This document shows positions 29,745-63,968 of a stretch of DNA of 64,000 nucleotides, in pieces. Each line of letters opens with the position of its first letter. Positions within the stretch are counted from its first letter, which is position 1. Below the pieces are notes generated by a model. It saw nothing but the letters and a program-made list of their open reading frames with translations. It was not told the origin of the DNA and searched no databases. A program made the translations under genes and the position numbers. The stretch covers positions 2,627-66,626 of the forward strand of contig CASFQR010000007.1 in NCBI GenBank assembly GCA_949297275.1. Reading direction: 5' to 3'. The DNA is from an uncultured bacterium (GTDB taxonomy: Bacteria; Bacillota_I; Bacilli_A; RFN20; CAG-826).

Positions 29745-30983
29745 TTAGTTTTGTAATTGAGAAGAATCAGTAAGTGGAAACGGGACAAAACTTTCTAAAT
29801 CACTAGGAAAAGCTAATTCAATAGCCGCAAAATCAAAGGTGAAGCTAGTATTAAAAATTATATCGGCGGTTGTGGTGTCTGTTATGGAGGTAGTAACTAC
29901 ATTTTCATCGCCACTAGAAGAACTAGAAGTAGAACTTAGCCCGACCCTCATATCAACATCAGTCGCAAGATAAGAAACATAGCCACTTTCATTGATAATA
30001 ATATCAAAATTAAAATTGTTGACGCCAAATAAATCACCCATGATTTCTTTAACGTCCTCGACAGTATAAGGTGGAACACTGGGATCGGAACTTGAAAGAA
30101 TAGAAGCCAAAAACTCGCAATATTCGTCTTCAGTTATATTAATATTAATCAAAGTATCTTCACCGTTGCTTTTACAAGTAAAGAATTCTTTTAATAGTGG
30201 CGATGTGGTGAATGCATCATTAAAACTCTGGATTAATTCTTCAGAAGTTGGCAGCGAAGCAATAACATCACTAACCACAGGTAAAGGCGAGGAAGTAGAA
30301 TTATTTAAAGAACTTAAATCAAAGACAATTTTTTCTCCCATTTGCTCTAACATTGAAGCAATTTGTTCAACTTGATTTTCATCCCCATGAGAAAAAAGAG
30401 GAATAATTTCTAAGACTTGATCATAAATGTCACTCCCAGTGACATCAAGATATAAATCAGTTCCTTGTAAATAGGCATCAATACTATCAAAATTAATTTC
30501 AAACGCGACACTATTATTATCATCAGCCTTAGCGGCGAAATTAAAATCAGTATTACTAATATTGGCAACCGCCTTAAAAGCTTGATCAACTGTTTTAGTC
30601 GCGTCCATATTAATCGCTAAACCAATATCACTAGTTAAAGAAATTTTTGAATTAAGAGTACTACTACTTTCTAATTCACCGTCGACAAATGTTTGACTTG
30701 TTGTTGTCTTATCAATTTTCACATCAGTTAAATCTGCATTAATTTTTAAGCTTTCAGCGTTTAAAGTATTTTCGTAGGCTAAAGCAAAAACTTTTAAACC
30801 GTCTTCTAAGGTAATGTCTTGACTAAAATCATTGATATCAGGCACCGATGTCGAGATATCATCGTTACTAGTTGTGCTAGAATCCATTTCACTACCACTA
30901 CTAGACGAAGAAGTTGTTACTTTGCAAGCATCTAAAGTAAAAAGCAATGCGATTGAGCCAATTAAAGGTAATATTTTTTTCAT
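29745..30983 (-). CDS. Ser/Thr/Asp-rich surface lipoprotein, partner of M6 peptidase module B
   Basis: Signal peptide with a Cys at LDAC; acidic low-complexity sequence. Confidence 0.55.
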   Translation of the reverse strand: MKKILPLIGSIALLFTLDACKVTTSSSSSGSEMDSSTTSNDDISTSVPDINDFSQDITLEDGLKVFALAYENTLNAESLKINADLTDVKIDKTTTSQTFVDGELESSSTLNSKISLTSDIGLAINMDATKTVDQAFKAVANISNTDFNFAAKADDNNSVAFEINFDSIDAYLQGTDLYLDVTGSDIYDQVLEIIPLFSHGDENQVEQIASMLEQMGEKIVFDLSSLNNSTSSPLPVVSDVIASLPTSEELIQSFNDAFTTSPLLKEFFTCKSNGEDTLININITEDEYCEFLASILSSSDPSVPPYTVEDVKEIMGDLFGVNNFNFDIIINESGYVSYLATDVDMRVGLSSTSSSSSGDENVVTTSITDTTTADIIFNTSFTFDFAAIELAFPSDLESFVPFPLTDSSQLQN

Positions 30984-31145: not shown

Positions 31146-32624
31146 TTACACTAATTTATTAATTTCAATTGTTGCTTCCGTGTTATTAAGCGCAGTAATA
31201 ACAAAATTATATTGGCAGGTACTTCCGTCATTAAAATGAAAATCGTTAAAGGTATTGATTCCAAACGAATCGCCTAAGGTAAATAATGTCTCATTATTAG
31301 CCTTATAACCATCTAAGAAGGTGTTTTGACCATTACTTTCTAATAAATGTAAAAGAAGATTTTCTGAAAAAGAATCGCCTAAGGTATAAGTATTATCGTG
31401 GGCAAAATATATCCGATAAGTACTTAAAGGATAAGTATTATCAGCAACATATTTAAATGGCAATAAAGTATTATTACTAATAAAACCCAACCTAGCGTCA
31501 ACATGATAAACTTTAATCCCAATTTGACTCATTAAAGCATCATTCGTCCTTCTAGCGTCTAAACTATTAAGATAATTTGGTGAATAAAATTCAATTAATA
31601 AATATTCATCAAAAGGCGTTTGATTCCAATCATCTTTTAGTAAAATTACATCACCAGTATTGGTAAATGGTCTTATTTTAATAGCAGTAGAATCGGTGAT
31701 TACTAAGGGAGTTATCCACCCTAATAGCATCTTAGAGAAAGAACTATGATCGCCTAAAGAATTATCCATCATATCCGCTCCACCAGTTGGATTATAACTT
31801 TCGCCATTTAAGTTATAGTAATCTTCTAAACCAAATAGATGGCCAACTTCATGAATAAATGTATGCGCATCGACGCGTCCAAATAAATCAGGATTCAATA
31901 AATGATAACTCGACCAAGAAAAAAGGGCTTCTTGGTTAACACTATATGCCCAAAAGACACTATCCTTAGCCTGCTCGCCTTGACTTAAAGGGGCGGAATA
32001 AACTAAATAAACTGGCACGCCATTGTCGCTGTTACCCGCAATATAAAAATCCACGAGGTTACCATATTTTTCCTCATACCAATTTAAGGCATCATGATAA
32101 ATATTTTTAATAATAGATGCGCGATTAGTCTGGCGATTAAGTTCACTCACACAATATTTTGAGCGATACCAATCACTAACAAACCCTGTTAAAGATAATT
32201 TGCCATAACTACTTTTATTGTAAAAACTCGCGACTGATTCAAATTGATTATTTTTATCATTACCAAAGAAAGCTTTTTTAATATTATCAAGTGTTTCTTC
32301 CTTGCTGCCTAAATTTGTTGCGGGATAATCATCAAAATCTACTGGAATCACTAATAATTTTTGTTCCCCTAGACTAGGTAGGGCTTGATGATAATTTTTG
32401 TTTTTTAATAATTGATAAAAATTAGTAATTGTCTGTTCTTCACCATTAACAATGTACGAATAATCTAAAAATTCACTTAATTTATAATAATTATCTGCTA
32501 TAAAACCATTATCTTCACCACTAGCATAAAAATTTTCATAAGGCACATAATGGTTATTTTTAGCGCAGGCACTTAAAGCAACAATTGTTAGAAGTGATAA
32601 AGAGATTAAATAACTTTTTTTCAT
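31146..32624 (-). CDS. M6 (immune inhibitor A-like) family zinc metalloprotease lipoprotein
   Basis: Lipobox LSAC. Zinc-binding motif HTFIHEVGHLFGLEDYY (HExxH + E, as in the M6 HEFGHxLGLxDEY motif), followed by DMMDN...GDH...SK..LGW. Confidence 0.7.
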   Translation of the reverse strand: MKKSYLISLSLLTIVALSACAKNNHYVPYENFYASGEDNGFIADNYYKLSEFLDYSYIVNGEEQTITNFYQLLKNKNYHQALPSLGEQKLLVIPVDFDDYPATNLGSKEETLDNIKKAFFGNDKNNQFESVASFYNKSSYGKLSLTGFVSDWYRSKYCVSELNRQTNRASIIKNIYHDALNWYEEKYGNLVDFYIAGNSDNGVPVYLVYSAPLSQGEQAKDSVFWAYSVNQEALFSWSSYHLLNPDLFGRVDAHTFIHEVGHLFGLEDYYNLNGESYNPTGGADMMDNSLGDHSSFSKMLLGWITPLVITDSTAIKIRPFTNTGDVILLKDDWNQTPFDEYLLIEFYSPNYLNSLDARRTNDALMSQIGIKVYHVDARLGFISNNTLLPFKYVADNTYPLSTYRIYFAHDNTYTLGDSFSENLLLHLLESNGQNTFLDGYKANNETLFTLGDSFGINTFNDFHFNDGSTCQYNFVITALNNTEATIEINKLV

Positions 32625-32765: not shown

Positions 32766-35009
32766 ATGAATAAGAAATTCTTAGTCTTATTACCGGCATT
32801 AGCATTAATGCTAACGGCTTGTCCAGAAGGCGAAAGTGTTAGTTCAACTTCTTCAAGCGGTAATAGCGGAGATGTCAATGATTCAACCGGCAGCAGCGAA
32901 GGTGGCGATTCGTCAAGCGTTACCCCCGTTGATCCAATCGACTTAGAAAAAGCTCAGGCGATTGCAAACTTACAAGCGCTTTCTAACCCAGCCGTCGAAG
33001 CAAATGTCACATTGAATAATGGCGAAAAATCTAATATCTATCGAACCGTAGGAGTCATAGGTGAAGAATTAGGTTATTCGGCCGTTTATCAAGTTAGTGA
33101 TGCAGGCGAAGAACTTTATTTAGAAGAATTATATGTTAAAGAACCAGAAACTGGTTATTTAGCAAGCGAATTCTTAGGTATTGATAATACTATTCAATAT
33201 TCTCGCTATTCCTTAACTGGTAGTAATGAACCATTAATGTTTGATGATGTTATCTATGCACCATTTAGTGGTATTGATGACAATTCATCAATTTGGCACA
33301 CCGAAACTAAAACCTTAGAAGTAGTTGTCATGCTCGCGCTTGATGGTTTTGAAGCTGCTAGTTTAATCTTTATGCCAGTCTTTACCCCTACTCGCGTCAA
33401 TATTGTTTTTGATGAAGAATTAAATCCAGTCGCGATGGCTGCTACTTTAACTGAAGGGGAAATTACTTCTACTTTAGAAGGGCGATTTGTTAATGGTGAT
33501 GATGTGATTGCCACTATTGAACGCGTTCAAACGATTCCAATGGGCGAAGGAAAAGAACCATTAACGGAAATGATCAGCGCTCTCCATGATGCGAATAATT
33601 ACACCATTTCATATGGAAATACAACATCAGGTTTCAATATTTTAGTCGATAAAGAAAAAGGTGTCGTTGAACAATTTTATGAGGAAGGCGCTATTGCTCA
33701 ACAAAGTGGCACTTTCCGCGTCAACGATAGTGAATTTGTCCGTTTTAAAGGCGTTGAAGCTGATGGAACCACTGTCACCACTTCCACACCAAATTTAACC
33801 GGTGATCCGCTTGATGATTATTTTGATGATCAAACACCAAGCTTCAGCGTTTCAGCAGCTTTCTTTGATGTTGTTACTAACGAAGAAACTGAAGAAACTG
33901 TCTTCAAATTAAATTCTGCTTATGATCCTGTTACATTCTTAAGCGATTTAATTCCACTTTCTTTCTTTGCTGATCCTAGCACTGTTTTAAGTGGCTCAAT
34001 CGAGTATGATGATGGTACGGTCGAGGATGTTTCTCCAACTATTTCTGGCAATACAGAAAATGTCGTTGTAACTTTCTCTATGCTATATATGGGTGTCTAT
34101 GTTCTTCCTATCTCTATTACATTAACTAACATCGGCACGACCGTCTATCCATTTACCGCTAATAGTGAATATCAAATCCCAACTACTTGGGAAGAATTAT
34201 TCTATGATAGTTATGCAACTATTAATGAAAATTTAAGCACGGTTGGTAATGCTCATAATGAAAATGCCGTCTTAGAAAATGTCCCATTCTATTTTGATCC
34301 ATTAAATTCATGGGGCGAAGATACCTTAACAATGAATTATGGTGCCTTTACAATTTATGCCTTAATTGATAATGAGAATGATATTTTAACCTTCTATGAA
34401 GCTTATGTCGCGCTTTTAGAAGATGAGGGTTGGGAAGAAGTAACTAGCGAAGAAACCGGCATTTATATCTATGAAAACGCTACATTTGGTTTAAAAATAA
34501 CCTTGACGCTTTATTTAGATGCAGTTGAATTAACTGTGACGAATGTGGGCTTTACCTATAGTAATATGTTCTCAGATTATAGCGGATCAGGCTATACTCC
34601 TGATGTTTCTCACGAAGAATTAGTGAATTTCCCACTCTTAATGCCGGCAACAGGCATCCTTAACTGGGGAGTAGTCTCTAGTGATAACTGGGAAACATGC
34701 CAACATTTCATTCAAATTGGTCAAACCGATACATATATTAGTAGTATTGCTGCTGGTGTTGATGATGCAAATAGTGAATTCCAAGCTTTCTTAGAAGAAG
34801 AAGGTTGGACATTAAAAATTAATACCGATCCAACATATGAAGATATTAGCGAATATGTTTATAGCAAAGTCGTTGGTGATAGAACATATACAATCACTAT
34901 CACTTATCTATTTTTTGGTGGAGATACAGTTGATATCGCGGTTGTCTTAAGTGGATATGACACACCTACTTCCACCGACACTCCTAGTGAAGAAACACCG
35001 GTTGAATAG
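32766..35009 (+). CDS. large acidic surface lipoprotein
   Basis: Lipobox LTAC; 747 aa; Ser/Gly/Asp-rich N-terminal linker. Confidence 0.6.
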   Translation: MNKKFLVLLPALALMLTACPEGESVSSTSSSGNSGDVNDSTGSSEGGDSSSVTPVDPIDLEKAQAIANLQALSNPAVEANVTLNNGEKSNIYRTVGVIGEELGYSAVYQVSDAGEELYLEELYVKEPETGYLASEFLGIDNTIQYSRYSLTGSNEPLMFDDVIYAPFSGIDDNSSIWHTETKTLEVVVMLALDGFEAASLIFMPVFTPTRVNIVFDEELNPVAMAATLTEGEITSTLEGRFVNGDDVIATIERVQTIPMGEGKEPLTEMISALHDANNYTISYGNTTSGFNILVDKEKGVVEQFYEEGAIAQQSGTFRVNDSEFVRFKGVEADGTTVTTSTPNLTGDPLDDYFDDQTPSFSVSAAFFDVVTNEETEETVFKLNSAYDPVTFLSDLIPLSFFADPSTVLSGSIEYDDGTVEDVSPTISGNTENVVVTFSMLYMGVYVLPISITLTNIGTTVYPFTANSEYQIPTTWEELFYDSYATINENLSTVGNAHNENAVLENVPFYFDPLNSWGEDTLTMNYGAFTIYALIDNENDILTFYEAYVALLEDEGWEEVTSEETGIYIYENATFGLKITLTLYLDAVELTVTNVGFTYSNMFSDYSGSGYTPDVSHEELVNFPLLMPATGILNWGVVSSDNWETCQHFIQIGQTDTYISSIAAGVDDANSEFQAFLEEEGWTLKINTDPTYEDISEYVYSKVVGDRTYTITITYLFFGGDTVDIAVVLSGYDTPTSTDTPSEETPVE

Positions 35010-35505: not shown

Positions 35506-36678
35506 TTAACCTAACAAAGCACCTAAATTAAATAAATAAATGACATAAACATTTTCACTACTAATTAAATCATCAACCCCAATACCAAAAGTCAATGAAC
35601 TATTAACATACATGCCAAAAGATTCGTCATAACTAAAATTATTTTCGCTTAAGGATGCAATATAATTAGTCGCGACTGTTTTATCAGTTGTGTTAATTTG
35701 AATAACAAGCGCGCCCATATAAGGATATAAGGCATAGAAAAAGGCAAAAGCATCACCGCTAGCCTCAGGAATATTGTCGTTAGTAACATCATAATCAAAG
35801 AATGTTAAGGCAAGATTTAAGTCTTCACTTGGCCACGAAGAACCTATATAAGTCTTGGGTTGTAAGACAAGATATGTCACATCACTTTCATAATAAGTAA
35901 AAACATGAAGATATTCTTTAGGGCTAATAGCAAGGTAAGTTGTCATATTATCTTCAGTAGATGAAGAAGTCGTCCAACCTAGGGCCGCTAAAGAATCGTT
36001 ATATTCTTTACTGCCATCATAACCATAACCTAAGCCAATGACAAAGATGTTCATATTAGATATATAATCAAAGTATCCATATTCATCATAAGCATGGCTA
36101 GGAGTTGGTAAGGAAGTAATTTCCCCCAAAGATAAGAAGTCGGCGTAATAATTTACGCGATCATTTTCAAATGTATCATAGTGAATATAATAAAAATCAG
36201 CGACAAAATAACATAGACCACTACTAACTAAATTACCAGTTTGGTCAAAGCCATAAACATTCACCTCAATCGAGGTTAAAGCATTAACATAAATCGTTAG
36301 GGTGTAATCTAAATAATTCGCATCTTGATAAGTAACCGTAAAACCATCAATAATTAAAGATTTACGAAATTCATCAATATATTCGCTAGAAACAGTTCGC
36401 GAAGTCGTCTCATAAGAGACACAATCGTAGTCTTCATAATAATTGACTTCTGCACCGGGAACTTCATAATATGTCGGAACAAAGCCGCCTAAATGCGTGC
36501 TAAATAAATCCCTTTCTTCTTCCGTCCAATCTTTAGTAGGCTCACTGCTAATAGAGGTGGAAGAATTGACGCTACTAACATCGCTAGATGTAGGGCCAGG
36601 GCAAGATGATAAAGTTAGAGCTAATGCTGGTAAAATAAATGTTAAAATTTTTTTCATATTTTTCCTTTCTTTCCACAA
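35506..36678 (-). CDS. lipoprotein, partner of M6 peptidase module A; start probably at the internal MKKIL (about 36657)
   Basis: Lipobox LSSC after MKKILTFILPALALT; Tyr/Asp-rich. Confidence 0.55.
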   Translation of the reverse strand: MWKERKNMKKILTFILPALALTLSSCPGPTSSDVSSVNSSTSISSEPTKDWTEEERDLFSTHLGGFVPTYYEVPGAEVNYYEDYDCVSYETTSRTVSSEYIDEFRKSLIIDGFTVTYQDANYLDYTLTIYVNALTSIEVNVYGFDQTGNLVSSGLCYFVADFYYIHYDTFENDRVNYYADFLSLGEITSLPTPSHAYDEYGYFDYISNMNIFVIGLGYGYDGSKEYNDSLAALGWTTSSSTEDNMTTYLAISPKEYLHVFTYYESDVTYLVLQPKTYIGSSWPSEDLNLALTFFDYDVTNDNIPEASGDAFAFFYALYPYMGALVIQINTTDKTVATNYIASLSENNFSYDESFGMYVNSSLTFGIGVDDLISSENVYVIYLFNLGALLG

Positions 36679-36716: not shown

Positions 36717-38342
36717 TTAAGCGATAGTGTTAATTTGAATGGTCGCTTCTTCGGGAGTGATAGAAACGATATCAATTGTATAACCAAAGGCTACTTTTTC
36801 ATCATTGCTATTACGCGTATGGAATAAGTAAGATTGGTAATTAGAACCTTCGCCATTAAAATTATCGCCTTGTTTAAATAGGGCTGCGTTATTAAATAAT
36901 ACGGAAGCACTATTACGGCCACCTTGTGGCAATAAGGAGATGAGATATTCATCCGGTTCAACGGTTTCAGTTTTGGTGTTAGAAGTAGCGATTTTCGTAA
37001 AGGTTGAACCACTAGTAGTCGATGAACGAATAATGCGGTTAGTGTACCCAGTAAAGACTTGGGTCTGAGTTTGTCCATTATAGTTATAAACACCTAAACG
37101 CGAATCAACATGGAGAATCTTAATGCCACTTTCAGTTGGGCAAGTTGGATAGGCTCCCCGCAAAGCAAATTGACTATCGCGTTCATTTAAACCAGTAGGA
37201 GTGTAATATTCTAAAACGAGATATTCAGCAAAATAAGTATTCTTATTTTCTTCTTCACTATCATAATAACCATAATAAGGAATAAAGATAGCGTCACCAG
37301 AACTAGCAAATGGACGAATCTTAATTTCTACTGAACCATTGACCATATAAGGCTTAACCCAACCTAAAATAGCTTTAGAATAGGCGTTATGATCACCAAC
37401 ATTATTGTCCATCATATCAACTTTACCTAAAGGAGCGATATTAGAATAAGAAGTATCATAATAGTCCCAAAGGGATAAAGCGTGACCAGTTTCATGAATT
37501 AAAGTGTGACAATCGACTTTAGCTTCACCGCTAGCGATTTGTTCAGCGGTCCAATTTTGGTGTTTACCATTTTCATCATAATAACCTTCTTCAAAGAAAG
37601 TTTGATAAGCAAAGAAGGCCCATTTACCAATATCTGGTTGTTGTTTATTGCCATCCGTGCTAGTGCCACCACAATAAGCCCAATAATAGCCATCTTCTAC
37701 ACCCATATCTTCACCATAATTAATTGGGGCCGAATAAACCATTGCTAAATAGTCGATTGAGCCATCGCCATCACTATCAAAATCTTGTAAAAGTTCATTC
37801 GCGCTTTCATAAAGAGGATTACCACTTTCATCAACGAATAAATTTTTATAATAACTAAAACTAGTTTTGATATTAGATAAGACCATGGTTGCATAAGAAA
37901 GTGGTTGGACACTTGTGGCAAAGGTATAGGCATCTAATGGTGTTTGTCGTTCAAAATCACTAAAGCCATATTGCCATGGCAAAACATAACCGCTAAAAGT
38001 TAATTTGCCATAACTACTTTCTTCATAATACGATTTTAAAGAATGCCAAATGGTATCACTCGCGTCCCCAAAGAAAGCGTTTTGCATATCTAAGCGGGCT
38101 TCTTCTTCGCTTTTACCATAAGTCTCTTCAATTTCAAAATCAGTAAATTTAATTGGAATTACTAAAACGCGCGCTTCGCCTTCTGAAGGACAATAATTTC
38201 CGACACCATAACCATCACGATTAACTTGCGAATTCGTGATATCTTCGGTTTCATATTGGAAATATTCGCCACCATTACAAGCACTTAAAATTGCCACTAA
38301 GGGAAGCATTGTTAGGATAGATAATAATTTTGTTTTCTTCAT
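36717..38342 (-). CDS. M6 (InhA-like) family zinc metalloprotease lipoprotein, paralog of 31146..32624
   Basis: Lipobox LSAC. Zinc-binding motif HTLIHETGHALSLWDYY and DMMDN..GDHNAYSK..LGWVKP; shares IKIRPF and the C-terminal IQINTIA/IEINKLV with its paralog. Confidence 0.7.
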   Translation of the reverse strand: MKKTKLLSILTMLPLVAILSACNGGEYFQYETEDITNSQVNRDGYGVGNYCPSEGEARVLVIPIKFTDFEIEETYGKSEEEARLDMQNAFFGDASDTIWHSLKSYYEESSYGKLTFSGYVLPWQYGFSDFERQTPLDAYTFATSVQPLSYATMVLSNIKTSFSYYKNLFVDESGNPLYESANELLQDFDSDGDGSIDYLAMVYSAPINYGEDMGVEDGYYWAYCGGTSTDGNKQQPDIGKWAFFAYQTFFEEGYYDENGKHQNWTAEQIASGEAKVDCHTLIHETGHALSLWDYYDTSYSNIAPLGKVDMMDNNVGDHNAYSKAILGWVKPYMVNGSVEIKIRPFASSGDAIFIPYYGYYDSEEENKNTYFAEYLVLEYYTPTGLNERDSQFALRGAYPTCPTESGIKILHVDSRLGVYNYNGQTQTQVFTGYTNRIIRSSTTSGSTFTKIATSNTKTETVEPDEYLISLLPQGGRNSASVLFNNAALFKQGDNFNGEGSNYQSYLFHTRNSNDEKVAFGYTIDIVSITPEEATIQINTIA

Positions 38343-40255: not shown

Positions 40256-40651
40256 TGGTGGAGCCGATGGGTAACGCTCCCATGTCCAAGAATAGTCTCA
40301 ATAAACTTCTACAGCTTAGTCGATATTAATCATTCACTATCATGTCAGTATCGACACATCCATTGATAGCTAGATGAACAAATTTTCATTTAGAATTAAC
40401 TCATCAACTTTCCTAAACTATCTTCTTGGTATGACACATTCCTTAAGCGTGAGAAGATGAAACCTTAAGATGCGCGCTGCCCGAACCTAGTTCGGAGTCT
40501 ATGTCGACTGCTATTAAGCAGCAGCGTAACTGAAGTTCATGGTAGAACTTCGATAACTACGATTGGCAGTTATTTTTGTTTGGTTAATAATGGGCACCGC
40601 CCAGCTGCAATTTATCTAGATCAATACCCCTGTCGAAACTTTTTCGACCCC
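40256..40651 (-). ncRNA. ssrA: tmRNA (ssrA), standard one-piece
   Basis: 5' end GGGGUCGAAAAAGUUUCGACAGGGG matches B. subtilis GGGGACGUUACGGAUUCGACAGGG. 3' end GGACAUGGGAGCGUUACCCAUCGGCUCCACCA matches B. subtilis GGACGUGGGUUCGACUCCCACCGUCUCCACCA. The 5' and 3' ends form a 7-bp acceptor stem. The tag ORF ...GCC AAU CGU AGU UAU CGA AGU UCU ACC AUG AAC UUC AGU UAC GCU GCU GCU UAA UAG gives ANRSYRSSTMNFSYAAA (plus 40511-40567). Confidence 0.88.
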
Positions 40652-40667
40652 AGGTGCGGTTATTATA

Positions 40668-41369
40668 TTATTCTTCAATTAAAATTTCAAATGCCCTTTG
40701 ATTATTTGCAAGACCTTCAACATAAATGTGAGGAGATTTATACCCTTTTAGAATTAAAAGATCGTTTTCATATAATTCTGTGGAATAATTAACCACTACT
40801 CTTTTAAAATTTTTCTTTTTTAATTCTGCATTAGAAAATAAATCTAAAACCATATCAATATAACGAGTGTTATTCATGTGTTGATTTAAATCAATGTCGG
40901 TAGAACGCACTCTTCTTTCTTCTAAAATCGCTCCTTCATTAGCCTCGATTCTTTTAGGATAGGCTAATTCATCTAAACGCGATTCATGATATAAAGGAAA
41001 TGTCATTTCATCTAAAACGACTGGTTTACGATTCGTCGAATCGATAATAAACCATAAAGCAATCATTTTTACTAAAACTTCGCCATTTTTATCGAGGAAT
41101 AAGTAATGACGAGGATAAATATAAGAACGGTTTTTACCAGGATAAGTTTCTAAAGTCACTTCTTCTAAATAATTGGGTAAGCGATTAATTTGTAATTCTA
41201 ATCGGGTAATGATCCATAAATAACCTCTTTCACGACAAATTTTTCCTAAGCCAAGATGTTCAACTTCCTCAACTGAAATATCTTGGGTTAATTTAAATAA
41301 AGATGATAATTTAAGTCGCAATGAAGCATCCACTTCACTTGATCCAATGATTATTTTTTTACTAAACAT
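40668..41369 (-). CDS. acyl-ACP thioesterase (hotdog fold)
   Basis: 233 aa; carries the NQHMNNTRYIDMVLD motif (N-H-V-N-N-x-x-Y) typical of acyl-ACP thioesterases. Confidence 0.7.
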   Translation of the reverse strand: MFSKKIIIGSSEVDASLRLKLSSLFKLTQDISVEEVEHLGLGKICRERGYLWIITRLELQINRLPNYLEEVTLETYPGKNRSYIYPRHYLFLDKNGEVLVKMIALWFIIDSTNRKPVVLDEMTFPLYHESRLDELAYPKRIEANEGAILEERRVRSTDIDLNQHMNNTRYIDMVLDLFSNAELKKKNFKRVVVNYSTELYENDLLILKGYKSPHIYVEGLANNQRAFEILIEE

Positions 41370-41943: not shown

Positions 41944-43014
41944 ATGGAAAAAGAGATTAAAAAGTCTAAGAAAAAATTAATTATTGGTCTAAGTGTCTCG
42001 CTAGGTGTTGTTGTTTTTTTAATTATAAGTTTAGTGATTTCCCTTTTTATAGCCCCTAAAATTGTTTTAAACCAAGTCTTTGCTAAATCTCCTTTACCTG
42101 ATTATCAATTAGTGGCGGGTAATGTCACTTATGATCGTTATGATAAAGATACCTTCCCGCGAGTAGAAACAACTTTTTTATCAACCGAGGGTGAACTAGA
42201 TGCTTATTATTTTCCTAATTCTAGAAGCGATGATTTAATTCTATTTATCCCAGGGTTAAGCGAAGGTACGAATTCATATTTACCTTGGATTAAATATTTT
42301 TATGACCAAGGATATGATCTTTTTTCTTTTGATCCAACAGGAACATATTTAAGTGAGGGTAAAACGCAGATTGGTTTTCCTCAACGCATTATAGATGCTC
42401 AAAAAGCGATTGAATTTATTAATGAAACATACCAATACGATAACCTTTATGTGATGGGTCATTCAATGGGAGGCTACGCTTCTATCGGAGTCAATTATTT
42501 TTGTGATAACATTAAAGCATCCATTTCCCTTGCAGGCTTTAACAATAATGAAGATTTTATGCTAAGCTTTGCGTCGCAATATGTTGGTGATACTTTAGTA
42601 AATTTGACCGGTGTTTTTTTAAGAAATTATTCAAAACAAATATTTGGGGAATTATCAGATTTAAATATGTATGATGTTTTAAATGATCTTAAAGGGCGGG
42701 CGATGATTGTCCAAGGAACGGCAGATACAGTTGTAAAATATCATAACGATTCAATAGCCTATTACCAAAATTTAATAACTAACCCCGATATTCAATATGT
42801 TGTTTTAGATGGTGATTATGCTACGCATTCCGGAATCTTATTAAGTAACGAGGCGAATGCTTATCGCATAGAAGTTAACGAAGAATTTAATAATTTAGCT
42901 AACGAATCATATGAAATAAGATCACAGTTCATTAATGAAGTTAATCATTCTTTATATACTGAAATTAATCAAGAATTATTCTCCACTATTTTAGAATTTA
43001 TCCAAAGCGCTTAA
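41944..43014 (+). CDS. membrane-anchored alpha/beta hydrolase (esterase/lipase-like)
   Basis: N-terminal TM segment; nucleophile elbow GHSMGG (YVMGHSMGGYASIG). Confidence 0.7.
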   Translation: MEKEIKKSKKKLIIGLSVSLGVVVFLIISLVISLFIAPKIVLNQVFAKSPLPDYQLVAGNVTYDRYDKDTFPRVETTFLSTEGELDAYYFPNSRSDDLILFIPGLSEGTNSYLPWIKYFYDQGYDLFSFDPTGTYLSEGKTQIGFPQRIIDAQKAIEFINETYQYDNLYVMGHSMGGYASIGVNYFCDNIKASISLAGFNNNEDFMLSFASQYVGDTLVNLTGVFLRNYSKQIFGELSDLNMYDVLNDLKGRAMIVQGTADTVVKYHNDSIAYYQNLITNPDIQYVVLDGDYATHSGILLSNEANAYRIEVNEEFNNLANESYEIRSQFINEVNHSLYTEINQELFSTILEFIQSA

Positions 43015-43229: not shown

Positions 43230-44435
43230 ATGAAAACATTCAAATTAATTCTTAAAAGTTTAATCTCTAATCAAACAGCAATTGATGCTTCAAAAAAGAA
43301 ACCATGGTATTTTGCTGTTATCTTTTATCTCCTAGCAACCGTTTTAGCGGTTATCCCTACGATGGTCACTTATCTAACCGCGACTGGTTCAGATTTTTTA
43401 AATCAAAGTTATGTCTATGGTTTTGATATTGCTACCACTAGATTTATCGAATCAATTAATGACAATGAAATCGATATGATTATCGCGAGTGAAAATGAAG
43501 ATACTAATTATTTATCAGTTGATATTAATAAGTGGAACACAGTTTATAATGAAGGTTTGCAAGCGGGTGATATTCGTTTTATTCACTGGGTACCTTCCCA
43601 AAACGCGAACGATTTAGACGTTTATTATACCGAGACTAGCGGAGCAGAATATAACGCCTATGTCGAAGATGTTTTAGGAAATTATTTACCTGGGACTGAA
43701 ATTAGAAACAATTCACTAGATTTAACTCGTCAATGTTCGGTTATTATCTTTGGGAAATATCAATATAATGTTTATTTATATCGTTTAGGAAATCCTTCTC
43801 CAATTTCAAGTAGTTCTGGTAATTATAATGCCTTTGAACCAGGCTATAATCTTCGCTCCATAATTGAAGTTTATGATAACGGTAATTTAGTCGATAAAAA
43901 TTCTCCAGGAACTTTATATCAAGTTTATCAACGCGGTGTTTATAATAATTTCAAAAATTTCTTTAATACTGGTTATATTGAAATTCGTAACACTGCTACT
44001 TGGCAAATGACCTTGATTATGTTTGCAATTAATGTTGCGATTGTCTTCTTCTTAGGTATCATTTTGTTCATCTTTACCCGCGGTCGCAATAATGTTTATA
44101 AGACATTAACTTTCTGGCAAACGCAAAAGATTGTTTATTGGTGTTCCTTCTCGCCAGGTATTTTAGCTATTATTTTAGGTTTCTTACTCTCTTCCATGAG
44201 TTATATTTTCTTCCCCTTATTTATTTCGGTCCGTTCAATGTGGGTTGTAACGAAAAATTTAAGACCTGAAAATCCGCAAGGAAGCGCTCAACCAACCGCT
44301 AAAGAACTCGCAGCCTATGAAGCGCGTGAAAAAGCGCGCAAAGAACGCGAAGAACAAAAGAAAAACAAGAAAAAAGGCCAAGTAATTGAAGCGGAAGTTA
44401 AAGACAAGGATAGTAATCCTAAAGATAAAAAATAA
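43230..44435 (+). CDS. membrane protein with an extracytoplasmic domain and a Lys/Glu-rich C-terminal tail
   Basis: One TM at residues about 25-45, a domain of about 200 aa, about 4 TMs, then a charged tail. Confidence 0.5.
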   Translation: MKTFKLILKSLISNQTAIDASKKKPWYFAVIFYLLATVLAVIPTMVTYLTATGSDFLNQSYVYGFDIATTRFIESINDNEIDMIIASENEDTNYLSVDINKWNTVYNEGLQAGDIRFIHWVPSQNANDLDVYYTETSGAEYNAYVEDVLGNYLPGTEIRNNSLDLTRQCSVIIFGKYQYNVYLYRLGNPSPISSSSGNYNAFEPGYNLRSIIEVYDNGNLVDKNSPGTLYQVYQRGVYNNFKNFFNTGYIEIRNTATWQMTLIMFAINVAIVFFLGIILFIFTRGRNNVYKTLTFWQTQKIVYWCSFSPGILAIILGFLLSSMSYIFFPLFISVRSMWVVTKNLRPENPQGSAQPTAKELAAYEAREKARKEREEQKKNKKKGQVIEAEVKDKDSNPKDKK

Positions 44436-58870: not shown

Positions 58871-58980
58871 AATGCACCTCTACTAATCGCCTTATTATAG
58901 CATTATTGTCATATTGATTAAGAAAATTTATTTTCTTTTACATATAGAAAATTTCTTGATTATGTCATAACATTTATTAT

Positions 58981-59697
58981 ATGTATTGTAAAAAATGTGG
59001 TTTTATTACACGCGGACATGAAAAATCTTGTCCATATTGTGGCGAAATTTATGAACCAAAAGGCAAATATGATAAGCCAATAACTTTTCTCAATTGGTTT
59101 GAAATTAGCCCGCGGGTTTTAGTGGAACTAATTCTTACTAATATTTATATTATCTTAGTTATTGCTGACATCATCTTAATTTATGGCTTAGATAATTCTA
59201 TAAATGTCCATTTATCATTTTATGGTTTTATTGCCATTTATGGCTTGATATTTATCTTTCATGATTTTTTGTTTCCTAAAGATCGTCGGCGAAATTTTTA
59301 TTTTTTAAAAACTTATTCTTTTGTTGTTTTAGCCGGAATAATTATGATGTTATCATTCCCGAGTTGGAATAATGATTTATTACCACTAATTAATATCTCA
59401 TCATTTAATTTCTGCTTTGGCTATTTATACCCAAGTTTAATTATCTTTTTAGTCTTAACTGGTACCTGCCACTTTTTTATTCATAAATTTTTCAATATTT
59501 TTTCAACCGTATTCTATATTTTGATATTAATCTTTTCAGGATTAACTTTATTTATTATGACGTTCTTCCCTAGTCTAGGATTTAACACCATTAATCGAAT
59601 TTTAATTTATATCTCATTTGGTACGGCTATCTTTACAATGATTAATTTAGCAATTGTCTTTTCTTTAAAACTCCGCACAAGAGGAGTGAGTGAATGA
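58981..59697 (+). CDS. Zinc-ribbon (CxxC-x13-CxxC) N-terminal domain fused to a polytopic membrane domain of about 6 TMs; first gene of the patatin operon
   Basis: MYCKKCGFITRGHEKSCPYCGE, then hydrophobic segments. The stop overlaps the start of the next gene (ATGA). Confidence 0.55.
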   Translation: MYCKKCGFITRGHEKSCPYCGEIYEPKGKYDKPITFLNWFEISPRVLVELILTNIYIILVIADIILIYGLDNSINVHLSFYGFIAIYGLIFIFHDFLFPKDRRRNFYFLKTYSFVVLAGIIMMLSFPSWNNDLLPLINISSFNFCFGYLYPSLIIFLVLTGTCHFFIHKFFNIFSTVFYILILIFSGLTLFIMTFFPSLGFNTINRILIYISFGTAIFTMINLAIVFSLKLRTRGVSE

Positions 59698-60542
59698 AAA
59701 TCGGATTATGCATTTCCGGTGGTTTTGCGCGTGGGGCGGCCCAAGCTGGCTTTCTTAAAGCCTTTTTTGAAGAAGTTAAACGAGAAGATATCGCTTTAAT
59801 ATCAGCGTGTTCAATCGGGGCAATTAACGCAATCAGCGTTGCAAATAATTCATTAGATTATTTAGATTTTTTATGGCGAACGATTGATGTTTTTGATTTT
59901 AAAAATCTCAAAATTAATTTAGGTAATAAAGTTGTCGATCGTTTATTGGAAGATATCTCTAATCCTAGTCGCAAAATTGAAATACCAATATATGTTACTG
60001 GTACCTGTTTAAACACTTTATCAACTCATTATTTTTATTTAAATGATAAGACTCCTCGCGAGGATGTTATAAAAGCATTAAATATCACTTTAACCTTCCC
60101 TTTTGTAAATGGTCTATTCCGCCGCGAATACCACCGCTTCTATCTTGATGGTGGATCAACTGATAATATTCCTGTTTATCCTTTTTATTATTACGATTTA
60201 GATATGATTATTGTTTTACATTGCCACCCAAATTATCTTCCGCCTCGCAAGATGATTTTAGGAAAAACACCAATTATTGATATCGATGTCACGGCTTTAT
60301 GTAAAAATACAATTTCTACTTATTCGTTTTCTAATAAAAATTTAAATCGCCTCTATGAATTAGGATATCAATATGGTTTAAAATTTAAACAAGAAGTGCT
60401 AGTAGGTTTAACGAAAGAAAATGCGAAAACAAGATTCCAAAAATTTCTCCGCGAGAATGCAGATTTAAGAAAGCAAAATAAAATTAATTTAGGCGCGGCT
60501 ATCTTCTTTAATAAACTAATGAATTCAAGGTATCTAAAATGA
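59694..60542 (+). CDS. patatin-like phospholipase (PNPLA) domain protein
   Basis: Oxyanion motif CISGGFARG, nucleophile motif ACSIG (a GxSxG variant) and DGG motif (YLDGGSTDN). No signal peptide. Confidence 0.7.
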   Translation: MKIGLCISGGFARGAAQAGFLKAFFEEVKREDIALISACSIGAINAISVANNSLDYLDFLWRTIDVFDFKNLKINLGNKVVDRLLEDISNPSRKIEIPIYVTGTCLNTLSTHYFYLNDKTPREDVIKALNITLTFPFVNGLFRREYHRFYLDGGSTDNIPVYPFYYYDLDMIIVLHCHPNYLPPRKMILGKTPIIDIDVTALCKNTISTYSFSNKNLNRLYELGYQYGLKFKQEVLVGLTKENAKTRFQKFLRENADLRKQNKINLGAAIFFNKLMNSRYLK

Positions 60543-61747
60543 AAAAGAAAATTGGCTTAGTATTAGCAGGTGGTGGCGGGCTTGGTTCCTATGAATTAGG
60601 TGCCTTTTTAGCCCTGCATGAAGAGGGAATTAATTTTGATATTGTTACTGGCACTTCCATCGGAGCGCTTAATGGAGCGTTTATAGCCGCGAATAATATC
60701 CAAAAGATGGAAGATTTGTGGGATGAAATTACACCAGAAAAAATCATGGTAAACGGCATCAATTTTCGCACTGACTTAAGATATAATCTTCAAGATCCAA
60801 AAGCTTTAACTAAATTCATTAAAACCTTTCTCAAAAATAAATCGGTCGATATTGCCCCTTTTAAAAATTTAATTAAAAAACATCTAGATTTAGAAGCTTT
60901 AAAAAATAGTCAAACTAAATTAGGGATTGTCACAACAAATATTACCCGTAACGACGAAGTAAGAATTATTGTTAATGATTTAGATCAAGAAATGATTCTA
61001 CCTTATCTCCACGCCTCTAGTGCCTGCGTGCCCTATTTTCCTAGCGAAGAAATTAATGGTGAAAAATATGTCGATGGTTTCTTTAAAAATAATTTTCCTA
61101 TTCATTATGCTTTTTTGCTAGGGGCTGATGAAGTCTATGCCGTTGATTTAAAATTATTTAATCTTGAATCTAAGAATCAATTTTTAACTAAACTACACAA
61201 TGTAAAATATATTGCCCCAAGAGTATCTTTAGGATCGATGATTGATTTTTCGCAAGAAACGATTCAAAAGAATAAAAAACGAGGTTATAACGACACTAAA
61301 AAGTTATTGGGTCATCTTCGTGGCTATATTTTTACCTTTGAGAAAAATGAAAATTTTGAAAAATTCGCGAGTGAATTTGAAACCATAATTTTTAAAGAAA
61401 ATGGTGAAGGCGTTCAACGCTTAAGAAAATTCTTAAACGAACATAATAACGAAAATACTTGTCCATTAGGATATAAATATTCTTTATTTTTAACTTGTTT
61501 AGAATTTGTTGGACTTAAATACGAGATGCCTGATGAGACTATTTATGATGTTTTAGATTTTTATCAACAATTACACACGAAATATTTGCATTCGCGTCCT
61601 TCATTAAAACAATATATCACCCGCGCGAAAACTAATTTATTAGAAGAAATTAAAAGAGAAAATCCCAATTTATATCTTGAAGGAGCTTTAGATCATATCG
61701 ATAATATCTTTTTATATTTAGGAATCGCTATGATGCGAATTAATTAA
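60539..61747 (+). CDS. patatin-like phospholipase domain protein with a C-terminal helical extension of about 180 aa
   Basis: LVLAGGGGLGSYELG (glycine-rich loop), GTSIG (GxSxG), and YVDGFF (DG dyad position). The 4-nt ATGA overlap with the upstream gene indicates translational coupling. Confidence 0.7.
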   Translation: MKKKIGLVLAGGGGLGSYELGAFLALHEEGINFDIVTGTSIGALNGAFIAANNIQKMEDLWDEITPEKIMVNGINFRTDLRYNLQDPKALTKFIKTFLKNKSVDIAPFKNLIKKHLDLEALKNSQTKLGIVTTNITRNDEVRIIVNDLDQEMILPYLHASSACVPYFPSEEINGEKYVDGFFKNNFPIHYAFLLGADEVYAVDLKLFNLESKNQFLTKLHNVKYIAPRVSLGSMIDFSQETIQKNKKRGYNDTKKLLGHLRGYIFTFEKNENFEKFASEFETIIFKENGEGVQRLRKFLNEHNNENTCPLGYKYSLFLTCLEFVGLKYEMPDETIYDVLDFYQQLHTKYLHSRPSLKQYITRAKTNLLEEIKRENPNLYLEGALDHIDNIFLYLGIAMMRIN

Positions 61748-63128
61748 CTAAAATTTCTTCAACATTAATCGTGGATGAACCTAGACGAGAATAAATACAT
61801 GTAATATTTTTTTCAACATATTGAGGTGCATCAACTTCACTTTCAATTAATTGACTTGCATCAATGGTAATGGTCATCATAGGAGCGATTAGCGAATTAG
61901 TAATAATACTTAAATTATTAATTTCCATGGATGTTACATCTTCTTGCACATCATTAAAGAGAATATTAATAAAGGCTTGATAATAAGCATTTGTGTTAAT
62001 ATCAGCATCAGATTTTAAGGAATAAACATCTGTTAAGATACGTTCAAAATCTAAAAACGTTTGGTATTCTTCATCGCTGATTTTGCTTGCAAGTAAAAAA
62101 GTATCTTCCACCATATAATAAGGTTGAATTGTGGTGCTTTCTATTGAATTTCCCCACAAATCCCCAATATTTCTTTGATAAGTGAGATAACCTAAATGAT
62201 TAGAATTATTCACCAGCAAAACTTCATTATTTTGATTTATTTTATGTAAGGCGTCTTCGGTGGCAATAACGCTATTTTGATAAGAGGTTTCACTAATAAT
62301 TTCATCATTAGGAATAACTGTACCATCATCATTTATTGTAACGCTATATCGCGTCTCATTGATTTGAGCACTTAAGGTGTAATTCGGTCCAAATAATGAA
62401 TTACCAAAATGTGAACTAATAAAATTATTTAAAGCAAAGTCGCTAGTGGGTATTTCTCCACTAAGAAGATAATTTTCTAAAGCTTCAATAGTGGTCATAT
62501 TAATATCATAAATATCATAAATAATCGTTCGTGAGGTATCGTTCCATGAAGAAATTGTCATCACTCCTTCATCATTAATTCCTAAAGTTAGATGAGTTAA
62601 ATTTTCTGATTGAGCGTTCACTAACGGACCAAAGATATTACCTAATTCCCCATCGTTAGGAATAATCAATTCGTTATTGTCAGCATCATAAAGATATTCA
62701 TCAACATTAAGGTGACTTAAATCGATAAAAGTAGGCGATGATTCACTAGTTAATGTAGTGACATTTAATGAAGCAGTATCACTTACATCATTCATCGTAA
62801 ATTCATGCCATAAATTATCACTTAATAAAAGTAAACCGCTAGTAAAAGTAAAGTCACTAATGGAAAAAGAGGTTGCCTGATAATTTTCATTTTGGTAAAT
62901 GGTTACTAAGCCATTTGAGGCGGTAAAATTAATCGAGGCATCAGTTAATAAAACTTTTAAATCTCTTCTAAGTATCTCTTCGGATGTTAATTCCACAATC
63001 GATGTTGATTCGCTACTAGGAGAGGAATCTATAGAGGAAGGTAAAATTACTGTTGTTCGTGTCTCTTCACAAGACATCATTAGAACACCGATAACCGCTA
63101 ATAAGATAAATCCTTTTTTATTCATCAA
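61740..63128 (-). CDS. surface lipoprotein, Ser/Thr/Asn-rich
   Basis: Lipobox LMMSC; 462 aa. Confidence 0.55.
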   Translation of the reverse strand: MMNKKGFILLAVIGVLMMSCEETRTTVILPSSIDSSPSSESTSIVELTSEEILRRDLKVLLTDASINFTASNGLVTIYQNENYQATSFSISDFTFTSGLLLLSDNLWHEFTMNDVSDTASLNVTTLTSESSPTFIDLSHLNVDEYLYDADNNELIIPNDGELGNIFGPLVNAQSENLTHLTLGINDEGVMTISSWNDTSRTIIYDIYDINMTTIEALENYLLSGEIPTSDFALNNFISSHFGNSLFGPNYTLSAQINETRYSVTINDDGTVIPNDEIISETSYQNSVIATEDALHKINQNNEVLLVNNSNHLGYLTYQRNIGDLWGNSIESTTIQPYYMVEDTFLLASKISDEEYQTFLDFERILTDVYSLKSDADINTNAYYQAFINILFNDVQEDVTSMEINNLSIITNSLIAPMMTITIDASQLIESEVDAPQYVEKNITCIYSRLGSSTINVEEILVN

Positions 63129-63143
63129 TTATTATTATAACAA

Positions 63144-63968
63144 CTAATCGAGCAAATTACATTTTTCCAAAATTAAGTGAACGATTTTAAGAACATCTTC
63201 GCGATATTTAATTGTTTTAGTTAATAAATCGCGATAATAACGATAATTAGGGAAATTTCGGATAAATTTAGGTCCACTGCCCCGGAGATATCGAATGGCT
63301 TTTTCTTCGCCTTTTTCAGCAATTAATAAATCCATAAAAGTGACTAAATAATTCATCTGCAATTTTATATCATTACCATAATTTATCTTTTCACCACTAG
63401 TGAAATATTTTTCAATTGCTGTAATTAATTCAGGATTACCTAATCCGCCACGCGCAACCATAATTCCGCTTGCATGGGTAATTTCAGATGCTTTAATGGC
63501 GTCTTCTAAAGTAAAGATATCGCCACTAATTATTAATGGTACCGACATTTTATCTTGTAAATTAGTTAATAAATCGTAATGGCATTTACCTGTATATAAC
63601 TCTTTAGCGGTTCTAGCGTGCAATGCAATTGCTTTAACTCCCGCTTCTTCCAATATACGAATGGTCTCAAGAAAATTAATTGAATTATTATCATAACCTA
63701 AGCGTATTTTAGCGGTAACTGGTCGTTTAGATTTAAGCACAATCGCTTCAATTGTCTCTTTTGAGCGTTTTAAATCTTTTAAATAAGCGGAGCCAGATCC
63801 CGAATTAATTATCTTTTTGACTGGGCAAGCAAAATTAATATCTAAAATATCGTATTTAAGATCTAATTCATCTAAAACATCAATAGCCTTTAAAAGCGTT
63901 TCTTTGGAATTTCCAAATAACTGAATAGCTAAAGGTGCATCGTCTTTATTAATCGTTAACATTTCCAA
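63144..63968 (-). CDS. dus: tRNA-dihydrouridine synthase (Dus family TIM barrel); apparently lacks the usual N-terminal 50 aa
   Basis: PLAIQLFGNS...LDINFACPVKK(I) matches the Dus core. The upstream in-frame stop is at 63984-63986 and the start is TTG/ATG at about 63968/63962. The window ends at 64000. Confidence 0.6.
   Translation of the reverse strand: MEMLTINKDDAPLAIQLFGNSKETLLKAIDVLDELDLKYDILDINFACPVKKIINSGSGSAYLKDLKRSKETIEAIVLKSKRPVTAKIRLGYDNNSINFLETIRILEEAGVKAIALHARTAKELYTGKCHYDLLTNLQDKMSVPLIISGDIFTLEDAIKASEITHASGIMVARGGLGNPELITAIEKYFTSGEKINYGNDIKLQMNYLVTFMDLLIAEKGEEKAIRYLRGSGPKFIRNFPNYRYYRDLLTKTIKYREDVLKIVHLILEKCNLLD

Follow-up and report, generated by a model that had tools for sequence, protein, structure and literature searches.

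What does a small zinc-ribbon membrane protein do in an operon with two intracellular phospholipase-like proteins? The question is raised by three consecutive genes on the plus strand, here called genes 1, 2 and 3, at positions 58981–61747 of a 64,000-nucleotide stretch of contig CASFQR010000007.1 from an uncultured bacterium; this whole stretch is referred to as the window. Gene 1 encodes a predicted six-helix membrane protein with an N-terminal zinc ribbon, and genes 2 and 3 encode patatin-like proteins. The original prediction, made from the DNA letters alone, took the trio as an uncharacterised unit that might serve either antiphage defence or lipid remodelling. Genes 1 and 2 turn out to be strictly linked across deeply divergent relatives, and the conserved module that they form looks more like housekeeping membrane-lipid turnover than phage defence.

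Genomic context was read for relatives of gene 1, for relatives of gene 2 and for distant family members, and the loci were scored with family hidden Markov models. At all 35 loci with readable downstream DNA, which represent 14 lineages, a gene-2-type patatin of 280–293 amino acids is the next gene after the gene-1 relative. This adjacency persists down to about 20–24% identity (family members P0186, P0190 and P0209). The junctions are nearly always overlaps of 1–20 nucleotides or gaps of at most 4 nucleotides, the exception being a gap of 108 nucleotides in locus L118, where the pair stands without gene 3. A gene-3-type patatin comes next in nine of the 14 lineages and is absent in five. Scanning metagenomes with the gene-3 family returned 80 loci, three of which were trios; in the other 77, no gene-1 or gene-2 relative was found beside the gene-3-type patatin (400–445 amino acids) within flanks of up to 4 kilobases, some contigs being shorter. 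Since the pair is present at 35 of 35 loci and gene 3 mostly stands alone elsewhere, the conserved core is the gene-1/gene-2 pair and not, as first proposed, the trio. Gene 3 appears to be an accessory from a widespread family that entered the operon in a subset of the clade. The holders of the gene-1 family are metagenome-assembled genomes (MAGs) labelled as uncultured Bacilli, Candidatus Alloenteromonas and Erysipelotrichales.

Within the window, gene 1 occupies 58981–59697 (238 amino acids), gene 2 59694–60542 (282 amino acids) and gene 3 60539–61747 (402 amino acids), each as an open reading frame on the plus strand. These coordinates and the two 4-nucleotide ATGA overlaps agree with those predicted. 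As read from the sequence, the ATG of gene 2 (59694–59696) overlaps the TGA of gene 1 (59695–59697), and the ATG of gene 3 (60539–60541) overlaps the TGA of gene 2 (60540–60542). A GGAG Shine-Dalgarno sequence for gene 2 is located in the 3′ end of gene 1 (59682–59685, plus strand), 8 nucleotides before the gene-2 start; together with the ATGA overlap at 59694–59697 it indicates that genes 1 and 2 are translationally coupled. Gene 3 is preceded by a weak AAGG only. The coupled junctions and the conservation across lineages support the earlier description of a co-expressed, conserved-looking and uncharacterised unit. No Shine-Dalgarno sequence was found in window positions 58871–58980 ahead of gene 1, which has a conserved MYCKKCG start, unlike the divergently oriented lysS, which has GAGGTG. 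Translation of the membrane subunit may accordingly start at a low rate or in an unconventional way. The 110-nucleotide divergent intergenic region between lysS and gene 1 contains a weak candidate sigma-70-like promoter, TTGTCA-17-TATTTT (58906–58934, plus strand), which matches at nine of 12 positions; such sites are not above shuffle expectation in this region. A promoter and terminator scan of the locus gave nothing above chance, and no Rfam RNA element was found at the locus.

The C4 zinc ribbon of gene 1 (residues 1–24, MYCKKCGF...CPYCG, of the form CxxC...CPxCG; 58981–59052, plus strand) is followed by a six-helix membrane domain (residues 44–237; 59110–59691, plus strand) seen in a predicted model. 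Across 49 family sequences, M1, C3, C6, C17, P18, C20 and P151 are invariant, and G21 and N54 (the latter in 48/49) are nearly so. Conserved sites within the membrane include D, E or N at position 63 in the first transmembrane helix (49/49), N, D or Q at position 222 in the sixth (47/49) and P151 (49/49). The AlphaFold model built from these 49 sequences (predicted local distance difference test score, pLDDT, 89.8; predicted template modelling score, pTM, 0.80), which replaced an earlier model from six sequences (pLDDT 58), consists of a small beta ribbon and six long helices at residues 44–69, 78–97, 103–125, 141–168, 173–193 and 203–237. Counts of Lys and Arg indicate that the N-terminus, loops 2–3 and 4–5 and the C-terminus are inside; the ribbon is thus predicted to be cytoplasmic, on the same side as the patatins. 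The invariant cysteines, the six-helix model and this topology bear out the prediction of a cytoplasmic C4 ribbon joined to about six transmembrane segments. Moreover, the conserved intramembrane polar residues (N54, D/E/N63 and N/D/Q222, with P151) suggest that the role of gene 1 goes beyond passive anchoring.

Gene 1 itself had no match in Pfam, NCBIfam or PADLOC, and its model had no specific fold match in the PDB or BFVD. Searched against the PDB, the family profile returned only zinc-ribbon matches and a chance-level match to LptF; some family members match zinc-ribbon Pfam families, and the 49 members gave nothing meaningful against NCBIfam. A word-indexed search with gene 1 found six relatives in 5.8e9 proteins. 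When 1.84e9 proteins were searched exhaustively by profile, 55 representative clusters emerged, nearly all of them full-length proteins of about 215–260 amino acids, with some truncated fragments among them. A link to a named family was provided by DUF6320 (PF19845), which six of the 49 family members match at E ≤ 0.01. When ten members were scanned singly, two scored above the 29.9-bit cut-off of this model (P0203 with 184.7 bits and P0194 with 33.9 bits); gene 1 stays below the gathering cut-off and has no match at E ≤ 0.1. P0203, a true DUF6320 member, was recovered over its full length by the gene-1 profile (E = 5.1e-6), and comparison of the close gene-1 subfamily with the DUF6320-like group by hhalign gave 99.6% (E = 1.8e-23, 215 columns). 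These two results argue that gene 1 is a divergent DUF6320 relative that falls beyond the boundary of the current Pfam model. The two share an N-terminal zinc ribbon and a six-helix membrane domain in a protein of about 220–260 amino acids, but the Pfam model does not recognise gene 1 or its close relatives. We found no paper on DUF6320 in the literature. Locus L032 (151–2074) contains a bona fide DUF6320 gene (184.7 bits); the gene upstream of it, which encodes 423 amino acids and has no Pfam match, overlaps it, and an Amidase_3 fragment comes after it.

With 63.5 and 111.1 bits, respectively, genes 2 and 3 clear the cut-off of the Pfam Patatin family (PF01734, 27.7 bits). No other Pfam domain was found in either at threshold, and a DUF3734 match (14.5 bits) was the only one below it. 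The Patatin matches begin at residue 5 in gene 2 and residue 7 in gene 3, too close to the N-terminus for a signal peptide, in agreement with the predicted cytoplasmic location. The Gly-rich loop of gene 2 is S-G-G-F-A-R-G, in which G9, G10, F11 and G14 are invariant in 25 sequences. Its nucleophile elbow, A-C-S40-I-G, is a variant motif; the family has [S/C/A/T/G]-x-S-x-G, with the first Gly usually replaced by Ser, Cys, Ala or Thr. Ser40, Gly42 and D152-G-G are invariant in the 25 gene-2 relatives. The protein also has a conserved FFNKL helix in its C-terminal part. In gene 3 the loop reads GGGGLG (family consensus GGGSLG), and G11, G12 and G16, as well as G-T-S40-I-G and D179-G, are invariant in 34 relatives. 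The motifs assigned originally are therefore present as far as the Gly-rich loop and Asp of both proteins and the GTSIG of gene 3 are concerned, but the ACSIG of gene 2 is not a GxSxG sequence. With the catalytic Ser and Asp retained, acyl-hydrolase activity is putatively assigned to both proteins.

Gene 3, for whose family 359 homologs were found, comprises the patatin domain (residues 7–191), a conserved lid-like stretch to about residue 267 and a variable helical tail. An extra helical domain of about 180 amino acids had been proposed for it; a C-terminal part of about 200 amino acids is indeed present, but it is conserved only to about residue 267, and the last 130 or so residues are variable. 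The two patatins are homologous, as predicted, but merely as distant paralogs, with 22% identity at the profile level and an hhalign value of 98.6%. A recent tandem duplication was ruled out by this low identity and by their different subfamilies. Gene 3 is a normal member of the COG1752/RssA-like stand-alone patatins of Firmicutes (annotated as 'NTE family protein' or 'predicted acylesterase/phospholipase RssA'), with which it shares its length range, the GTSIG and DG motifs and the conserved stretch after the domain. It differs from them in that most (the 77 of 80 loci) lack the gene-1/gene-2 neighbours and in that it scores below the RssA equivalog cut-off (NF007623, 272 bits; gene 3 61.5 and gene 2 21.3 bits).

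The closest solved relative of both patatins is the passenger of PlpD (PDB 5fqu), with profile E values of 9.8e-21 for the gene-3 family and 9.3e-9 for the gene-2 family. PlpD is a type Vd-secreted patatin of Pseudomonas aeruginosa whose Gly-rich loop, Ser elbow and DG(G) Asp align with those of genes 2 and 3. However, PlpD is secreted through its own POTRA domain and beta-barrel; neither of these, nor a signal peptide, is present in genes 2 and 3. An assignment as type Vd autotransporter patatins (PlpD/FplA) was rejected on these grounds, the proteins being 282 and 402 amino acids long without a C-terminal beta-barrel, and a secreted toxin or a toxin of a type V or type VII secretion system was rejected because no signal or secretion domains are present.

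One group of loci bears on the role of gene 2. In L115 (5737–6609; also in L116 and L117) the Ser of the gene-2-like protein is kept, but its Gly-rich loop is gone and SGT replaces DGG, so that the Asp is lost too. Likely a pseudoenzyme, this degenerate protein nevertheless keeps its place between genes 1 and 3 in the L115 trio. Its retention suggests a conserved non-catalytic scaffold or adaptor role.

The trio occupies the same position between lysS and dus in two relatives whose gene-1 products are 83% and 55% identical to that of the window. In the first, gene 2 is 92% and gene 3 is 88% identical, compared with 92% for LysS and 86% for Dus; in the second, the corresponding values are 69% and 51%, compared with 84% and 60%. 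Thus, the trio is inherited syntenically and vertically in close relatives, and its divergence tracks that of its neighbours. The ratio of nonsynonymous to synonymous polymorphism (pN/pS) is 0.07–0.11 for all three genes against the 83–92% identical relative, which points to purifying selection, and the GC content of the locus (30–32%) is like that of the surroundings. Searches of plasmid, phage and IMG/VR collections yielded no relatives of gene 1 or gene 2, and with no matches among plasmids, phages and viral contigs, mobile-element cargo was rejected. The original prediction had also considered that the trio might be a universal set of housekeeping lipid genes at this position. The position is indeed the same in close relatives, but distant relatives carry the genes at other positions, and the family is rare rather than universal.

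We favour, with a probability of roughly 0.45, the reading that the locus is a membrane-docked intracellular acyl-hydrolase module for lipid turnover, remodelling or fatty-acid salvage. From the features described above we infer a physical association, a range of substrates and a physiological role as follows. Gene 1, with both termini inside, would use its cytoplasmic ribbon and/or loops to dock the soluble gene-2 patatin onto the inner leaflet and probably to regulate it. Gene 3, as a second and more conventional long patatin, would have been added to the operon in this lineage and kept in fixed proportion through translational coupling. The complex would then deacylate the cell's own or imported membrane lipids, such as phospholipids, lysolipids or glycolipids. 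Several observations support parts of this proposal. The strict linkage of genes 1 and 2 amid differing flanks argues for a module, and the placement of the zinc ribbon and both patatins on the cytoplasmic side would suit docking. The catalytic motifs kept by gene 2 (Ser40, Gly42 and DGG) and gene 3 (GTSIG and DG) are consistent with acyl hydrolysis. The shared position, neighbour-like divergence, low pN/pS, host-like GC content and absence from the mobile collections argue for housekeeping behaviour. Further support comes from the retained but degenerate gene-2-like protein of L115, from the conserved polar residues in the membrane domain of gene 1 and from the lipid genes that adjoin the module in two lineages. 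A functional analogy can be drawn to PlaF of P. aeruginosa, a phospholipase A1 bound to the cytoplasmic membrane that remodels endogenous glycerophospholipids (PMC9132575). The analogy extends only to an intracellular lipase held at the cytoplasmic membrane for remodelling of the cell's own lipids: PlaF has an unrelated alpha/beta hydrolase fold and a transmembrane anchor in cis, whereas the anchor proposed here is a separate six-helix zinc-ribbon protein.

Other observations weigh against this proposal. Lipid-related genes adjoin the module in just two of the 14 lineages, namely genes for cardiolipin synthase, an Mbeg1-like lipase and an 83-amino acid FakA-like fragment in L115 and for DegV/FakB in L013. 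The gene-1 family is rare (the 55 clusters noted above) and restricted to the set of MAGs named earlier, which argues that it does not carry out a general housekeeping function. The true DUF6320 member in L032 has no patatin on its 2.4-kilobase contig, and the patatin link may not reach the whole DUF6320 family. An acyl-ACP thioesterase gene in the window argues against strict fatty-acid auxotrophy as the driver. Finally, patatin enzymes are also classic membrane-destroying effectors, and a regulated lytic role is compatible with the sequence.

A more elaborate version, which we consider unlikely, is that the DUF6320-type protein is a membrane-embedded regulator or sensor that gates a heteromeric patatin pair, in which gene 2 would be an adaptor able to become a pseudoenzyme. 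If this were true, it would be an undescribed way for a bacterium to switch on an intracellular phospholipase at its own membrane, and the gated pair would serve either as the bacterial counterpart of the Lands cycle or as a new system of membrane lysis triggered by stress or phage.

Four alternatives to the docked acyl-hydrolase module were weighed. Gene 1 might instead act as a transporter, flippase or scramblase: exogenous lipids or those of the outer leaflet would be moved to the inner face, and the patatins would strip their acyl chains there. The six transmembrane helices with polar residues in the bilayer (N54, D/E/N63 and N/D/Q222) and the invariant, helix-kinking Pro151 would fit such a protein, as would the cholesterol-dependent cytolysin gene directly upstream of the pair in one lineage and the DegV/FakB and FakA-like neighbours in two. 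We judge this uptake or presentation role to be unlikely.

Also unlikely, and a little more so, is regulated membrane destruction, in the form of antiphage abortive infection, programmed lysis or a toxin, in which gene 1 would sense a membrane or cytoplasmic signal and release or activate the patatins against the cell's own membrane. The patatin effectors CapV and CapE of the cyclic oligonucleotide-based antiphage signalling system (CBASS) act on their own membrane in this manner under the control of a partner from the same operon, and they share with genes 2 and 3 the patatin fold and a cytoplasmic location. Gene 3 is weakly similar to the CBASS lipase (E = 2.8e-6) and to PADLOC phospholipase effectors (E = 5.6e-8), and the nearest PDB matches include a cUMP-AMP-activated phospholipase. 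A tight operon with a membrane protein bearing intramembrane polar residues would suit a sensor, and the rarity and lineage restriction of the gene-1 family are also in keeping with this role. However, gene 3 reaches only 26.8 bits against the CBASS phospholipase model (NF041079, cut-off 200), gene 2 does not match it at all, another score is 19.7 against a cut-off of 400, and the PADLOC effector models give at most 30.5 bits with the patatins. Scores this far below the family cut-offs argue that the similarity to CBASS and PADLOC lipases is generic to patatins.

The context of the genes likewise speaks against membrane destruction. PADLOC analysis of the 49 gene-1 family members gave two chance-level matches (E = 0.004–0.01) and nothing meaningful. 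Gene calls in the annotated neighbourhoods included no cyclase, nuclease or signal transduction ATPase with numerous domains (STAND NTPase), and no other gene for defence or sensing. The operon partner is a membrane protein and not a cGAS/DncV-like nucleotidyltransferase (CD-NTase) as in CBASS, none of which was called nearby, and the neighbours are lysS and the putative lipoprotein and dus genes. The lysS–dus synteny holds in three species-level relatives, in which the module diverges along with its neighbours, the GC content is host-like, and the plasmid, phage and IMG/VR collections yielded no relatives. The flanks of the homologous loci are housekeeping genes, and the defence-island setting for which the original prediction had suggested looking was not seen in the annotated neighbourhoods. 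Overall, the antiphage reading of the original prediction found no positive evidence, and its lipid-remodelling alternative fits better.

That the substrate is an acyl lipid other than a phospholipid (glycolipids, diacylglycerol, lipoteichoic-acid anchors or lipoprotein acyl groups), which would make the module an envelope maturation or editing system, strikes us as slightly less probable still. The gene-3 loop GGGGLG lacks the Arg or Lys of the classical phospholipase GGGxRG, as the loops of neutral-lipid PNPLA enzymes generally do, and the convergent neighbour of gene 3 is a putative lipoprotein; but gene 2 keeps the Arg (GGFARG), and the lipoprotein neighbour is absent in other lineages. 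Chance adjacency of unrelated genes through compact-genome packing, in which 4-nucleotide overlaps are common in small AT-rich genomes, is effectively refuted by the 35 of 35 loci in 14 lineages with rearranged flanks and down to about 20% identity.

The genes that flank the module vary among lineages. In the window and its close relatives they are lysS and dus; the lysS assignment, also made originally, is secure (693.6 bits against a cut-off of 468). Elsewhere the genes on the two sides are YccF-TM2 and folD (L001 and L007), a Na/H exchanger and DegV (L013), peptidase M29 and a sigma factor (L033), and rpmB and proBA (L118). In L115, cls, the Mbeg1-like lipase and the FakA-like fragment precede the operon, and hydrogenase lies on the other side. 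An HhH-GPD glycosylase and DUF898 precede the module in L012, in which an aldo-keto reductase follows; such a reductase directly follows the trio in both Candidatus Alloenteromonas-type lineages (L012 8092–8862, L019 4472–5245, L020 8814–9587 and L023 8805–9575). The flank upstream of the pair in L005 is the thiol-activated (cholesterol-dependent) cytolysin gene of one lineage (L005 6241–7965 and L006 5886–7610), ahead of which lie a Band_7 and zinc-ribbon protein and several membrane proteins without a Pfam match. Small YccF and TM2-domain membrane proteins recur beside the module in several unrelated lineages (L001 7134–7911, L005 2667–3344, L007 7049–7901, L035 5338–5535 and L049 2480–2845). 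TM2 comes directly after gene 3 in L035–37, and YccF adjoins a stand-alone gene-3-type patatin in L049; these proteins may be loosely linked extra membrane components. No conserved lipid-gene neighbours of stand-alone gene-3 homologs were found, and a Pfam scan of neighbours without assignment at other loci gave no matches.

In the window, gene 3 is convergent with a gene for a putative lipoprotein of 462 amino acids (61740–63128, minus strand), the 3′ ends overlapping by 8 nucleotides. The N-terminus of this protein has a signal peptide followed by a Cys, and it belongs to no Pfam family. It changes much faster than its neighbours, with 75% and 36% identity in the relatives in which LysS is 92% and 84% identical. 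The Dus open reading frame (63144–63968, minus strand) is listed with a TTG start at 63968; the homologs in relatives are 329–342 amino acids long, and the gene probably runs past the window end, which would make this start an artefact. The acyl-ACP thioesterase gene adjoins a transfer-messenger RNA gene (98.9 bits), with an alpha/beta-hydrolase gene nearby (40256–41369 and 41944–43014), and argues that acyl-ACP metabolism is present in the organism. Seven large open reading frames of the window (390–747 amino acids) have no Pfam family at E ≤ 1e-5: 32766–35009 and 43230–44435 on the plus strand, and 36717–38342, 14773–16311, 31146–32624, 35506–36678 and 29745–30983 on the minus strand. Because TGA is read as a stop and the long open reading frames are intact under translation table 11, the organism cannot be a code-4 mollicute. 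The earlier portrayal of the host as wall-less and sterol-scavenging is unsupported, given this use of TGA and the SpoVA and PBP5 genes adjacent to the module in one pair-bearing relative.

Intracellular patatin-like hydrolases are abundant in bacteria, and to our knowledge a role or a regulator has been established for almost none of them outside toxins and CBASS effectors. In agreement with the original prediction, we found no description in the literature of a patatin paired with a zinc-ribbon membrane protein, and in the Lipocone paper patatin appears only in contexts that have no bearing on this pairing. What is new here is that patatin hydrolases appear to have a dedicated membrane partner of the DUF6320 type, previously undescribed. 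The immediate impact is limited, since the organisms are uncultured and no long-standing question is touched. Nevertheless, for DUF6320 and its relatives outside the current model, the strict patatin linkage across very deep divergence provides a first firm functional association. If the proposed docking or regulation holds true, the module would offer a simple two- or three-protein system for biochemistry and would show how small-genome gut Bacilli control the degradation of their own membrane lipids.

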